Position numbers and translations under genes: made by a program
Assembly: GCF_003334305.1 (NCBI RefSeq)
Contig: NZ_QOWS01000001.1
Reading direction: 5' to 3' (one strand)
Length of the DNA: 64,000 nucleotides
DNA from: Escherichia coli
Lineage (GTDB): Bacteria > Pseudomonadota > Gammaproteobacteria > Enterobacterales > Enterobacteriaceae
Part shown: positions 34,623 through 46,703 of the stretch, piece by piece
Numbering within the stretch: the stretch's first letter is position 1
Layout of the letters: each line of letters starts with the position of its first letter
Notes under the pieces: model-generated
Database searches by the model: none
What the model saw: the letters and a program-made list of their open reading frames with translations, nothing else
What the model was told of the DNA's origin: nothing

Positions 34623-36038
34623 ATGTTACTTCCTGTAATTATGGCTGGTGGTACCGGCAGTCGTCTCTGGCCGATGTCACGCGAGCTTTATCCGAAACAG
34701 TTCCTCCGCCTGTTCGGGCAGAACTCCATGCTGCAGGAAACCATCACCCGACTCTCGGGTCTTGAAATCCATGAACCGATGGTCATCTGTAACGAAGAGC
34801 ATCGCTTCCTGGTGGCTGAACAGCTGCGCCAGCTAAATAAGCTGTCGAATAACATTATACTTGAGCCAGTCGGGCGCAACACCGCGCCGGCCATCGCCCT
34901 GGCGGCCCTTCAGGCCACCCGCTACGGTGACGACCCGCTGATGCTGGTTCTCGCCGCCGACCACATCATCAATAACCAGTCGGCCTTCCACGACGCTATC
35001 CGGGTCGCCGAGCAGTATGCTGATGAAGGTCATCTGGTCACCTTCGGTATCGTGCCGAATGCCCCGGAAACTGGCTACGGTTACATTCAGCGCGGCGTGG
35101 CGCTCACCGATAGTGCCCATTCCGCGTACCAGGTGGCCCGCTTTGTGGAGAAGCCGGATCGCGAGCGCGCCGAGGCTTACCTCGCCTCCGGGGAGTACTA
35201 CTGGAACAGCGGCATGTTTATGTTCCGCGCCAAGAAATACCTCATCGAGCTGGCCAAATACCGTCCGGATATCCTGGAAGCCTGCCAGGCTGCGGTGAAT
35301 GCCGCCGATAATGGCAGCGATTTCATCAATATCCCACATGATATTTTCTGCGAGTGCCCGGATGAGTCCGTGGACTACGCCGTTATGGAGAAAACCGCTG
35401 ATGCGGTGGTGGTCGGTCTCGATGCTGACTGGAGCGACGTTGGCTCCTGGTCCGCACTATGGGAGGTCAGCCCGAAAGACGAGCAGGGCAACGTCCTTAG
35501 TGGCGACGCGTGGGTACACAACAGCGAAAACTGCTACATCAACAGCGACGAGAAGCTAGTGGCGGCCATTGGCGTAGAGAATCTGGTGATTGTCAGCACT
35601 AAGGACGCCGTGCTGGTGATGAATCGCGAGCGTTCCCAGGACGTGAAGAAGGCGGTCGAGTTCCTCAAGCAGAACCAGCGCAGCGAGTACAAGCGCCACC
35701 GTGAGATTTACCGCCCCTGGGGCCGTTGCGACGTAGTGGTCCAGACCCCGCGCTTCAACGTCAACCGCATCACGGTGAAACCAGGCGGTGCCTTCTCGAT
35801 GCAGATGCACCACCATCGCGCCGAGCATTGGGTTATTCTCGCCGGCACCGGTCAGGTGACGGTCAACGGTAAGCAGTTCCTGCTGTCCGAGAACCAGTCC
35901 ACCTTTATTCCGATTGGCGCCGAGCACTGCCTGGAAAACCCTGGCTGTATTCCGCTGGAAGTGCTGGAGATCCAGTCGGGGGCGTACCTTGGCGAGGACG
36001 ACATTATTCGTATTAAAGACCAGTATGGTCGTTGCTAA
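34623..36038 (+). CDS. manC: Mannose-1-phosphate guanylyltransferase (O-antigen copy)
   Basis: 471 aa; [11 protein letters not shown] motif; GC-rich relative to flanking genes; paralogue of cpsB. Confidence 0.9.
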
Positions 36039-36061
36039 TTATTTTCGGGACAAGATGCAGA

Positions 36062-37438
36062 ATGACACAGTTAACTTGTTTTAAGGCTTATGACATCCGT
36101 GGTGAACTGGGTGAGGAACTGAACGAGGACATCGCCTACCGTATCGGTCGCGCCTACGGCGAATTTCTGAAACCCGGGAAGATAGTGGTGGGGGGCGATG
36201 TGCGCCTCACAAGCGAGTCGCTGAAGCTGGCGCTGGCCCGCGGGTTAATGGACGCCGGTACCGACGTGCTGGACATCGGCCTGAGCGGTACCGAAGAGAT
36301 TTACTTTGCCACCTTCCACCTTGGGGTAGATGGTGGCATCGAGGTGACCGCGAGCCACAATCCTATGAACTACAACGGCATGAAGCTGGTGCGCGAGAAT
36401 GCGAAGCCCATCAGCGGCGACACCGGCCTGCGGGATATCCAGCGCCTGGCGGAGGAAAACCAGTTCCCGCCAGTGGACCCGGCGCGTCGCGGGACCCTGA
36501 GCAAGATATCGGTACTGAAGGAGTATGTTGACCATCTGATGAGCTACGTGGACTTCTCGAACTTCACCCGTCCACTGAAGTTGGTGGTGAACTCCGGAAA
36601 CGGGGCTGCGGGGCACGTGATTGATGAGGTGGAGAAACGCTTCGCGGCGGCTGGGGTGCCGGTAACCTTTATCAAGGTGCATCACCAGCCGGATGGCCAT
36701 TTCCCTAACGGTATCCCGAATCCGCTGCTGCCGGAGTGCCGCCAGGATACCGCCGACGCGGTGCGCGAGCATCAGGCAGACATGGGGATTGCCTTTGACG
36801 GCGACTTCGATCGCTGCTTCCTGTTCGATGACGAAGCTTCGTTTATCGAGGGGTATTACATTGTCGGCCTGCTGGCTGAGGCGTTCCTGCAGAAGCAGCC
36901 GGGAGCGAAAATCATTCACGACCCGCGCTTGACGTGGAACACGGTAGACATCGTGACCCGCAACGGCGGCCAGCCGGTGATGTCGAAGACGGGGCATGCG
37001 TTCATCAAGGAGCGGATGCGTCAGGAAGACGCTATCTACGGCGGGGAGATGAGTGCGCACCATTACTTCCGCGATTTCGCCTACTGCGATAGCGGGATGA
37101 TCCCGTGGCTGCTGGTGGCGGAGCTGCTGTGTCTGAAGAACAGCTCGCTGAAATCGCTGGTGGCGGACCGCCAGAGGGCGTTCCCTGCGTCGGGAGAGAT
37201 CAACCGCAAGCTAAGGAATGCGGCTGAGGCGATCGCCCGCATCCGGGCGCAGTATGAGCCGGCGGCTGCACACATCGACACAACGGACGGGATCAGTATT
37301 GAATACCCTGAATGGCGCTTTAACCTGCGCACGTCTAACACCGAGCCGGTGGTGCGTCTGAACGTTGAGTCCAGAGCTGATGTGGCGCTTATGAATGAAA
37401 AAACGACCGAGCTGTTACACCTGTTAAGCGGGGAATAA
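36062..37438 (+). CDS. manB: Phosphomannomutase (O-antigen copy)
   Basis: 458 aa from [14 protein letters not shown]; TASHNP active-site motif; paralogue of cpsG. Confidence 0.9.
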
Positions 37439-37439
37439 G

Positions 37440-44432: not shown

Positions 44433-45578
44433 ATGAAAATTATTTTTGCTACTGAGCCAATTAAATACCCATTAACGGGCATCGGTCGGTATTCCCTGGA
44501 GCTGGTTAAGCGGCTGGCGGTCGCCCGCGAAATTGAAGAATTAAAGCTATTTCACGGTGCGTCGTTTATAGAACAGATCCCTTTGGTGGAGAATAAAAGC
44601 GATACCAAAGCCAGCAATCATGGTCGTCTGTCGGCGTTTCTACGCCGACAGACGCTGTTGATTGAGGCTTATCGCTTGCTGCATCCGCGGCGCCAGGCGT
44701 GGGCATTGCGCGACTATAAGGATTATATCTACCATGGCCCCAATTTTTATCTGCCGCATAAACTGGAACGCGCCGTGACCACGTTTCATGACATATCCAT
44801 TTTTACCTGCCCGGAATATCATCCAAAAGATCGGGTTCGCTATATGGAGAAGTCCCTGCATGAGAGTCTGGATTCGGCAAAGCTGATCCTGACCGTTTCT
44901 GATTTCTCGCGCAGTGAAATTATCCGCTTGTTCAACTATCCGGAGGAGCGGATCGTAACCACCAAGCTAGCCTGCAGCAGTGACTATATCCCACGCAGCC
45001 CGGCAGAGTGTCTGCCGGTACTGCAGAAATATCAGCTGGCGTGGCAGGCCTACGCGCTATATATCGGCACTATGGAGCCACGTAAAAATATCCGAGGCCT
45101 GCTGCATGCCTATCAGCTGCTACCGATGGAGATCCGCATGCGCTATCCGCTAATCCTTAGCGGCTATCGCGGCTGGGAAGACGATGTGCTGTGGCAGTTA
45201 GTCGAGCTCGGTACTCGGGAAGGCTGGATCCGTTACCTCGGATATGTTCCGGATGAAGACCTGCCGTATCTGTACGCAGCGGCCAGAGTCTTTGTTTATC
45301 CCTCCTTCTACGAGGGATTCGGTTTACCTATTCTTGAAGCGATGTCTTGCGGTGTGCCGGTAGTATGCTCCAATGTCACCTCTTTGCCTGAGGTTGTTGG
45401 CGATGCCGGCCTCGTTGCCGATCCTAATGATATAGACGCGATTAGCGCGCAAATTTTGCAGAGCCTGCAAGATGATAGCTGGCGGGAAATCGCCACCGCG
45501 CGCGGTCTTGCTCAGGCGAAACAGTTTTCGTGGGAGAACTGTGCGACACAGACCATTAACGCCTATAAATTACTCTAA
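44433..45578 (+). CDS. wbdB: Mannosyltransferase WbdB (GT4)
   Basis: 381 aa from MKIIFATEP (ORF track starts at upstream GTG 44421); GT4 motif EGFGLPILEAMSCGVPVV. Confidence 0.7.
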   Translation: MKIIFATEPIKYPLTGIGRYSLELVKRLAVAREIEELKLFHGASFIEQIPLVENKSDTKASNHGRLSAFLRRQTLLIEAYRLLHPRRQAWALRDYKDYIYHGPNFYLPHKLERAVTTFHDISIFTCPEYHPKDRVRYMEKSLHESLDSAKLILTVSDFSRSEIIRLFNYPEERIVTTKLACSSDYIPRSPAECLPVLQKYQLAWQAYALYIGTMEPRKNIRGLLHAYQLLPMEIRMRYPLILSGYRGWEDDVLWQLVELGTREGWIRYLGYVPDEDLPYLYAAARVFVYPSFYEGFGLPILEAMSCGVPVVCSNVTSLPEVVGDAGLVADPNDIDAISAQILQSLQDDSWREIATARGLAQAKQFSWENCATQTINAYKLL

Positions 45579-45587
45579 GGGTGTCAG

Positions 45588-46703
45588 TTGAGAGTTCTAC
45601 ACGTCTATAAGACTTACTATCCCGATACCTACGGCGGTATTGAGCAGGTAATTTATCAGCTAAGTCAGGGCTGCGCCCGCCGGGGAATCGCAGCCGATGT
45701 TTTCACTTTTAGCCCGGACAAAGATACAGGTCCTGTCGCTTACGAAGATCATCGGGTCATTTATAATAAACAGCTTTTTGAAATTGCCTCCACGCCGTTT
45801 TCGCTGAAAGCGTTAAAGCGTTTTAAGCTGATTAAAGATGACTACGATATCATCAACTACCATTTTCCGTTTCCCTTTATGGATATGCTGCATCTTTCGG
45901 CGCGGCCTGACGCCAGGACTGTGGTGACCTATCACTCTGATATAGTGAAACAAAAACGGTTAATGAAGCTGTACCAGCCGCTGCAGGAGCGATTTCTCAG
46001 CGGCGTAGATTGCATCGTTGCCTCGTCGCCCAATTATGTGGCTTCCAGCCAGACCCTGAAAAAATATCTGGATAAAACGGTGGTGATCCCGTTTGGTCTG
46101 GAACAGCAGGACGTGCAGCACGATCCGCAGAGGGTCGCGCACTGGCGGGAAACTGTCGGCGATAAGTTCTTTCTCTTCGTCGGCACTTTCCGCTACTACA
46201 AAGGGCTGCATATTCTGATGGATGCCGCTGAGCGTAGCCGACTGCCAGTGGTGGTTGTAGGGGGCGGGCCGCTGGAATCGGAAGTGCGGCGTGAAGCGCA
46301 GCAGCGCGGGCTGAGCAATGTGATGTTTACCGGCATGCTCAACGACGAAGATAAGTACATTCTCTTCCAGCTCTGCCGGGGCGTGGTATTCCCCTCGCAT
46401 CTGCGCTCTGAGGCGTTTGGTATTACGTTATTGGAAGGCGCACGCTTCGCAAGGCCACTGATCTCTTGTGAGATTGGTACAGGTACCTCTTTCATTAACC
46501 AGGACAAAGTGAGTGGTTGCGTGATTCCGCCGAATGATAGCCAGGCGCTGGTGGAGGCGATGAATGAGCTCTGGAATAACGAGGAAACCTCCAACCGCTA
46601 TGGCGAAAACTCGCGTCGTCGTTTTGAAGAGATGTTTACTGCCGACCATATGATTGACGCCTATGTCAATCTCTACACTACATTGCTGGAAAGCAAATCC
46701 TGA
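45588..46703 (+). CDS. wbdC: Mannosyltransferase WbdC (GT4), TTG start as given by ORF track
   Basis: 371 aa; GT4 C-terminal domain (SEAFGITLLEGARFARPLIS); start codon uncertain. Confidence 0.7.
   Translation: MRVLHVYKTYYPDTYGGIEQVIYQLSQGCARRGIAADVFTFSPDKDTGPVAYEDHRVIYNKQLFEIASTPFSLKALKRFKLIKDDYDIINYHFPFPFMDMLHLSARPDARTVVTYHSDIVKQKRLMKLYQPLQERFLSGVDCIVASSPNYVASSQTLKKYLDKTVVIPFGLEQQDVQHDPQRVAHWRETVGDKFFLFVGTFRYYKGLHILMDAAERSRLPVVVVGGGPLESEVRREAQQRGLSNVMFTGMLNDEDKYILFQLCRGVVFPSHLRSEAFGITLLEGARFARPLISCEIGTGTSFINQDKVSGCVIPPNDSQALVEAMNELWNNEETSNRYGENSRRRFEEMFTADHMIDAYVNLYTTLLESKS

Follow-up and report, generated by a model that had tools for sequence, protein, structure and literature searches.

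Genes and location of the his-linked cluster

We analyzed a 64,000-nucleotide stretch of Escherichia coli DNA (here referred to as the window) in which positions 34623-46703 hold eight genes on the plus strand, all in one direction and in the order manC-manB-wzm-wzt-wbdD-wbdA-wbdB-wbdC. The cluster does not occupy the galF-gnd interval but lies between gnd-ugd-wzzB and hisIE, the gnd-hisI location described for O8 and O9 clusters (PMC7685785). On one flank, gnd (29538-30944) is followed by ugd and wzzB (32502-33482). On the other, the convergent hisIE (46742-47350, minus strand) marks the boundary outside the cluster, 39 nt past the wbdC stop codon. An exact match to the ops element, GGCGGTAG, is present on the plus strand at 34534-34541, 82 nt upstream of the manC start. 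Elements of the ops/JUMPStart type are the RfaH antitermination signal in operon leaders, and this copy would be expected to play that part here.

The first two genes encode enzymes of sugar-nucleotide synthesis. The product of manC (34623-36038; 471 aa; GC content, 56-59%) is a bifunctional mannose-1-phosphate guanylyltransferase/mannose-6-phosphate isomerase according to RefSeq and to NCBIfam TIGR01479, over whose cut-off it scores 741 bits. That of manB, or rfbK (36062-37438; 458 aa), is a phosphomannomutase that RefSeq names "O9 family phosphomannomutase RfbK" and that scores 853 bits, again over the cut-off, against NCBIfam NF011943. The last two genes, wbdB (44433-45578; 381 aa) and wbdC (45588-46703; 371 aa), both bear RefSeq product names and encode GT4 mannosyltransferases with an EX7E motif at residues 294 and 275, respectively. 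WbdC adds the first mannose onto Und-PP-GlcNAc, and WbdB builds the adaptor region common to O8 and O9 (PMC7685785). Two gene starts were taken from RefSeq rather than from the mechanical list of open reading frames, namely, 36062 for manB (mechanical start, 36032) and 44433 for wbdB. The eight open reading frames are genuine coding sequence, and a chance pattern is excluded.

Exporter, polymerase, and chain terminator

The genes wzm (37440-38234; 264 aa) and wzt (38234-39448; 404 aa) encode the permease and the ATPase of an O-antigen ABC exporter. Their products equal RefSeq WP_001308747.1 and WP_000120464.1, respectively, both named "O8 family." Wzt has an N-terminal ABC nucleotide-binding domain (Pfam ABC_tran) followed by a C-terminal Wzt_C domain at residues 259-397 (nt 39008-39424; Pfam E value, 1.5e-38), and its best PDB matches, 8dku and 7k2t, are full-length transporters of the Wzt type. 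The C-terminal extension, which the original prediction had taken for a terminus-recognizing domain, thus matches a carbohydrate-binding family, and it is the part of the protein that has diverged from O9.

The serotype-defining polymerizing mannosyltransferase, WbdA (40728-44369; 1,213 aa), consists of three GT-B modules at approximately residues 1-410, 455-820, and 831-1213 (the last at nt 43218-44366). These boundaries are approximate, the Pfam scan covered residues 1-1200 of 1,213, and published boundaries and linkage assignments were taken from reviews. Three modules and a trisaccharide repeat are described for WbdA of O8 (PMC7685785, PMC11231755, PMC5320592). The repeat contains one alpha-1,3-, one alpha-1,2-, and one beta-1,2-linked mannose according to the O8/O5 literature. 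Three GT4-like modules had been proposed for this protein; for the third, the term fits the fold, whereas the motif set is incomplete. Module 3 adopts a confident GT-B fold with GT4 neighbors but has no EX7E motif, the second Glu being missing; its conserved Glu is E1116 (residue 286 of the module). It also carries, in its N-terminal half, two His/Asp pairs (H118/D122 and H150/D154 in module numbering) that are invariant across 42 homologues. GT4 is a retaining family and all three WbdA modules look GT4-like, yet the O8 repeat includes a beta-1,2-linked mannose. Given this mismatch, the missing Glu, and the invariant pairs, module 3 could tentatively be regarded as an inverting beta-mannosyltransferase on a GT4-like scaffold, a proposal that we consider possible but on balance doubtful. 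If true, it would hold for every O8/O5 cluster and not for this window alone.

The putative chain terminator, WbdD (39448-40725; 425 aa), was examined by Pfam, PDB sequence search, AlphaFold, and Foldseek. In the AlphaFold model (pLDDT, 84.6), a class I SAM methyltransferase with a Rossmann fold (residues 1-232; nt 39448-40143) is followed by a single 69-residue helix (residues 238-306; nt 40159-40365) and then by shorter helices. The helix is a candidate coiled coil, as suggested by the monomer model and by a crude heptad score that peaks at approximately residues 240-310. The remaining C-terminal region (residues 308-425) is basic and helical, with a conserved SRSWR..PLRW motif. Pfam returned only methyltransferase families (residues 39-145), the PDB sequence search returned only SAM methyltransferases, and the Foldseek matches to the model were SAM methyltransferases throughout. 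Neither Pfam nor the PDB sequence search nor the predicted fold gave any sign of a kinase domain in WbdD. In contrast, the O9-family WbdD (708 aa), which corresponds to the crystallized WbdD 4azs, scored for Pkinase, ABC1, and APH as a positive control. These results agree with the original prediction, in which this WbdD had only a SAM methyltransferase domain and a short coiled coil and the O9 type was a longer kinase-methyltransferase, and they are in line with the report that the WbdD of O8 methylates directly and has no kinase domain (PMC3482155). The lengths quoted in the original prediction for WbdD and WbdA, 425 and 1,213 aa, are exact.

The layout of WbdD matches that of a wider group of O-antigen chain-terminating methyltransferases from Serratia, Pantoea, Stutzerimonas, Acinetobacter, and metagenomes, in which a methyltransferase is followed by a helix and a conserved SxSWR..P.R motif. 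Members of this group are 40-57% identical to WbdD over the full length, and 5,985 proteins scored at an E value of ≤1e-5. These proteins differ in belonging to other polymers and other organisms and in the variable length of their helical spacer; a natural duplication of 50 aa occurs in Enterobacter.

Assignment to the O8 type and proposed pathway

Over its 12,081 bases, the cluster is 100% identical to numerous complete genomes of E. coli, IAI1 and a strain labeled O8:H28 among them, and on this identical DNA the wzm and wzt alleles have the RefSeq name "O8 family." In IAI1 (NC_011741.1, 2147478-2159558), all eight genes are 100% identical, encode proteins of equal length, and adjoin hisIE in the same way. 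The gene content, order, and location, the allele identity, and the domain architectures are shown directly by these analyses. At least 80% of the 12,081-base interval is present in 277 of 5,426 complete genomes, and exact copies of Wzm, Wzt, and WbdA are each encoded on at least 1,000 contigs (exact WbdD, 580). Because hundreds of E. coli genome sequences contain identical copies, the cluster is an ordinary and already known one.

The corresponding cluster of the Klebsiella pneumoniae complex, presumably of O5 type, encodes Wzm, Wzt, WbdD, and WbdA of equal length (264, 404, 425, and 1,213 aa), and the architecture is the same on the strength of these lengths. Wzm is 97-98% identical, Wzt 97.5%, WbdD 92.7%, and WbdA 94.1%, so that the Klebsiella proteins diverge by 2-7% of amino acids from those in the window; "O8 family" is the name given to these Klebsiella proteins by NCBI. 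The polymers and loci of O8 and Klebsiella O5 have been equated (PMC7685785, PMC11231755, PMC5320592), and the link to Klebsiella drawn in the original prediction is borne out by these same-length proteins. Together with the DNA match to IAI1 and the O8:H28 strain, these data indicate that the cluster is almost certainly a polymannose O-antigen operon of the E. coli O8 (Klebsiella O5) type that follows the ABC transporter-dependent, polymerase-terminator pathway, as had been predicted from protein lengths. The sequence contains no feature that speaks against this assignment.

We weighed this assignment against an O9/O9a (Klebsiella O3)-type cluster, using NZ_CP195377.1 (L002) as the O9-family reference. 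Its gene order and location match the window, manC, manB, wbdB, and wbdC are ~92% identical in DNA, WbdB and WbdC are each 96% identical in protein, and the "O9 family" name of RfbK points the same way. In both types, moreover, the pathway combines a polymerase with a coiled-coil terminator and an exporter that has a carbohydrate-binding domain. However, every serotype-specific gene disagrees. In O9/O9a, a 708-aa WbdD combines methyltransferase and kinase and attaches methyl phosphate (PMC3482155), whereas the 425-aa WbdD in the window has no kinase and resembles it only over the C-terminal 113 aa (34% identity), the catalytic part being unrelated. The O9/O9a WbdA has 840 aa and two modules, compared with 1,213 aa and three modules here, and the two are 30% identical. 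Wzm is 64% identical to its O9 counterpart and Wzt is 44% identical overall, with 65% in the nucleotide-binding domain but 23% in the C-terminal domain, and RefSeq places wzm and wzt in the O8 family. Neither WbdA nor Wzt thus had O9 as its best match, and the absence of a WbdD kinase left the O8 call standing. On the absence of the kinase and the divergence of WbdD, WbdA, and Wzt from O9 alleles, we reject an O9/O9a identity, whose probability we consider negligible. As expected, the alignments show a mosaic relation to the O9-family cluster, with conserved WbdB and WbdC, diverged Wzm, Wzt, and WbdA, and an unrelated WbdD catalytic part; a reader can tell O8 from O9 by protein lengths alone. 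A new O8 sub-serotype arising from a few WbdA substitutions, comparable to O9 versus O9a, would be conceivable in principle, since a single WbdA substitution alters the O9 repeat length (PMC7685785) and small changes can therefore matter. WbdA here is nevertheless the common allele described above, on DNA identical to that of IAI1 and the O8:H28 strain, and such a sub-serotype appears very improbable.

For the O8-type cluster, the enzymatic activities, the structure of the polymer, the function of the helix as a ruler, and the recognition of the cap by Wzt are inferred from published work on proteins that are identical or nearly so. ManB and ManC would supply GDP-mannose, and WecA, encoded outside the window, would prime undecaprenyl phosphate with GlcNAc-1-P. 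A short mannose adaptor would then be added, by WbdC first and then by WbdB, and the three-module WbdA would polymerize the trisaccharide repeat with the three linkages given above. WbdD would stop chain growth by methylating the nonreducing terminal mannose directly, without prior phosphorylation. Its C-terminal region may hold the protein at the membrane while the ~70-residue helix spaces the methyltransferase from it. The capped end would be recognized by the C-terminal domain of Wzt, and the completed chain would be exported by Wzm/Wzt and then ligated to lipid A-core.

A second O-antigen cluster in the window

At galF-gnd, positions 23707-29419 hold genes for an ATP-grasp amidoligase, Wzx, a GT2 protein, Wzy, a GlcNAc transferase, and a second GT2 protein. 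The cluster is of the O46/O134 Wzx/Wzy family and is identical to that of strain STEC005. It differs from the corresponding locus of IAI1, which holds an EpsG/GT2/galE/GT cluster. A literature search on the combination of O8 with O46/O134 returned general typing papers only and no specific report.

Because this second O-antigen cluster is intact, the cell surface may carry more than O8. We therefore considered whether, with the O8 cluster intact, the galF-gnd polymer might dominate the serological O type, or whether both polymers might be displayed, the second as an O-antigen-like K antigen. All of the galF-gnd genes are intact, the cluster has its own ops element (23685-23692), and wzy is open in the window but has a frameshift in strain A7, which is identical otherwise. 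Wzx/wzy genes carried by O8 strains have moreover been described as directed to capsule, with the O polysaccharide made via the ABC transporter (PMC4732683). The O8 cluster is likewise intact, however, with ops upstream, and in published precedents the polymannose antigen of the his-linked locus decides the type of strains that have both loci. Dominance or co-display of the galF-gnd polymer seems to us rather unlikely, and it would bear on the phenotype of the strain but not on the identity of the his-linked cluster, which we continue to read as O8 type.

By genotype, the source strain is thus of O type O8, a result of little importance beyond annotation. Since the O46/O134-family cluster is also intact, automated serotyping from wzx/wzy and wzm/wzt markers would assign two O types to this genome, and in such a case the his-linked cluster needs to be taken into account.

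Architecture of the his-linked O8 operon

The his-linked polymannose O-antigen operon occupies positions 34623-46703 and comprises eight open reading frames (ORFs), all on the + strand with minimal or overlapping spacing: manC (34623-36038, 471 aa), manB/rfbK (36062-37438, 458 aa), wzm (37440-38234, 264 aa), wzt (38234-39448, 404 aa), wbdD (39448-40725, 425 aa), wbdA (40728-44369, 1213 aa), wbdB (44433-45578, 381 aa), and wbdC (45588-46703, 371 aa). For manB and wbdB we used the starts in the RefSeq annotation of identical DNA (36062 and 44433), versus 36032 and 44421 in the mechanical ORF list. 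The coordinates and protein lengths of the original prediction agree exactly with these ORFs. The genes gnd, ugd, and wzzB lie upstream, and hisIE is convergent to the operon, 39 nt downstream. An ops element, GGCGGTAG, is located 82 nt upstream of manC, which fits RfaH-dependent transcription of the entire operon. The 1.1-kb wzzB-manC spacer (33483-34622) is AT-rich in part and contains a 94-aa ORF (34057-34341) annotated in RefSeq only as a hypothetical protein; in the IAI1 spacer, the annotation places a pseudogene fragment on the other strand. The spacer is possibly left over from a junction of the acquired segment.

WbdD and the Wzt C-terminal domain

The assignment to the O8 type had rested in part on a 425-aa WbdD containing a methyltransferase as its only catalytic domain. 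Pfam analysis of WbdD revealed only class I SAM methyltransferase families (residues 39-145), with weak coiled-coil-like noise in the remainder (248-312), and a PDB sequence search returned only methyltransferases (best match 3dli, E 7e-31). An AlphaFold model built with 63 homologues (mean pLDDT 84.6) consists of a Rossmann methyltransferase (1-232), a single unbroken helix (238-306), and then four to five shorter helices to the C terminus. A crude heptad score is maximal over residues ~240-310. In a Foldseek comparison of the model against the PDB, every match was a SAM methyltransferase; thus, no kinase domain was found by Pfam, PDB sequence search, or Foldseek. As a positive control for kinase detection, we used the 708-aa WbdD of the O9-family cluster in NZ_CP195377.1, which gave Pkinase (E 1e-8), ABC1, and APH matches at residues 240-379 and matched the crystallised O9a WbdD (4azs) with an E value of 0. 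The kinase-free architecture therefore holds, in keeping with the published description of the O8 WbdD homologue as lacking a kinase domain and methylating sugar hydroxyls directly (PMC3482155).

The two WbdD proteins can be aligned only in their last 113 residues (34% identity), which take in the helix end, the conserved motif SRSWR..P.R, and the basic region at the C terminus. This agrees with a common membrane-anchor/polymerase-recruitment part joined to unrelated catalytic parts. Two Enterobacter roggenkampii homologues (P0001 and P0002) are ~98-99% identical to this WbdD outside a 50-52-aa tandem duplication of the long-helix segment (residues ~243-294), and a Pluralibacter gergoviae homologue (P0007, ~80% identical) carries a 48-aa insert of SRLDKLDQ-like repeats in the same place. 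All three resemble naturally occurring versions of the proposed molecular ruler that differ in length.

The C-terminal extension of Wzt, predicted to be of the terminus-recognising type, corresponds to the Pfam domain Wzt_C (residues 259-397, E 1.5e-38), and the closest PDB relatives of Wzt are full-length transporters bearing such a domain. Recognition of the capped terminus by this domain is taken from the literature (PMC7685785).

The serotype-specific core and WbdA

We set the encoded proteins against the O9-family cluster and against Klebsiella pneumoniae complex proteins of equal length. Identity to the O9 family was 30% for WbdA (840 aa in that cluster), 44% for whole Wzt (65% in the nucleotide-binding domain and 23% in the C-terminal domain), and 64% for Wzm, versus 94.1%, 97.5%, and 97-98%, respectively, for Klebsiella. 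WbdD is 92.7% identical to its Klebsiella counterpart. O9 alleles are thereby ruled out as the best alignment of WbdA and Wzt. In contrast to this core, WbdB and WbdC are each 96% identical to the O9-family proteins, and the manCB and wbdBC ends are ~92% identical in DNA. This is the expected mosaic, with a serotype-specific core bounded on both sides by common precursor and adaptor genes. The GC content steps sharply within the operon, from 56-59% in manC-manB (34500-37500) to 45-49% in wzm-wbdA (37500-44500), which fits the mosaic, horizontally acquired origin described for such clusters (PMC7685785). The Klebsiella proteins fall in the same 90% clusters as those studied here, supporting the "Klebsiella O5-type" designation; the O5 label itself comes from the literature (PMC7685785, PMC11231755, PMC5320592) and not from serotyping of the compared isolates.

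A Pfam scan of WbdA residues 1-1200 gave three sets of group-1/GT4 matches: strong in module 1 (228-383, E 3e-28), moderate in module 2 (478-817, E ~1e-11), and weak in module 3 (901-1181, E ~3e-4). The predicted three-module organization thus stands, with one refinement: a motif scan found no EX7E in module 3, although the motif is present in module 1 (317-325), module 2 (718-726), WbdB, and WbdC. Module 3 (residues 831-1213, positions 43218-44366) nevertheless has a confident GT4-like GT-B fold, and its H118/D122 and H150/D154 (module numbering) are invariant across 42 homologues. GT4 enzymes are retaining. Since the O8 repeat contains one beta-1,2 linkage (PMC7685785), one WbdA module would have to act in another way; the obvious candidate for forming this linkage would be module 3.

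In the proposed pathway, ManB and ManC would produce GDP-mannose, WbdC and WbdB would build the adaptor on Und-PP-GlcNAc, and WbdA would polymerize the trisaccharide repeat. WbdD would then methylate the non-reducing end and stop growth, and the Wzt C-terminal domain would bind the cap for export by Wzm/Wzt. The parts are seen in the sequence; their activities we infer from publications on proteins that are identical or nearly so. The observation of the cluster is confirmed and its O8/Klebsiella O5-type interpretation supported on every tested point; as a textbook model system, the cluster was already known.

Distribution of the O8 cluster and a second O-antigen locus

Many complete E. coli chromosomes share all 12,081 bases at 100% identity, among them those of IAI1 and of a strain recorded as O8:H28, and at least 80% of the interval is present in 277 of 5,426 complete genomes. 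In RefSeq, the products of wzm and wzt both carry the name "O8 family." In the protein collection, at least 1,000 contigs encode exactly this Wzm, and the same holds for Wzt and for WbdA; the exact WbdD is found on 580. The allele set is the common one and no variant. The exact WbdD and WbdA sequences (425 and 1213 aa) were returned within one 90% cluster of this collection, which points to a fused or read-through gene call linking the two in some record, and so probably to an artefact of the database and not to a biological cause. A search with the O8 interval found seven plasmid places in total. On the 210-kb plasmid NZ_CP104682.1 of E. coli 2022CK-00450, a complete O8-type cluster (8001-20087, 98.5% identical) lies between a Tn4401/KPC-2 unit and IS5; an O-antigen operon has thus been mobilised beside a carbapenemase.

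Besides the O8 cluster, six intact genes are present between galF and gnd (23707-29419), with their own ops element (23685-23692): an ATP-grasp amidoligase (23707-24552), wzx (24554-25855), a GT2 (25857-26762), wzy (26759-27898), a GlcNAc transferase (27855-28688), and a second GT2 (28691-29419). RefSeq labels the flippase and polymerase "O46/O134 family," so marker-based serotyping would yield two O types; the cells may display O8, the galF-gnd product, or both. The wzy frame is open here, whereas in the otherwise identical strain A7 it is annotated as frameshifted, with 4 G versus 5 G at 26867-26871. The run may be an on/off site prone to slippage, or the two strains may differ here only through sequencing. 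An earlier paper already reports O8 strains with a Wzx/Wzy cluster at galF-gnd (PMC4732683). The present one is rare (17 of 5,426 complete genomes), and at least 8 of those 17 also carry the O8 cluster at 100% identity.
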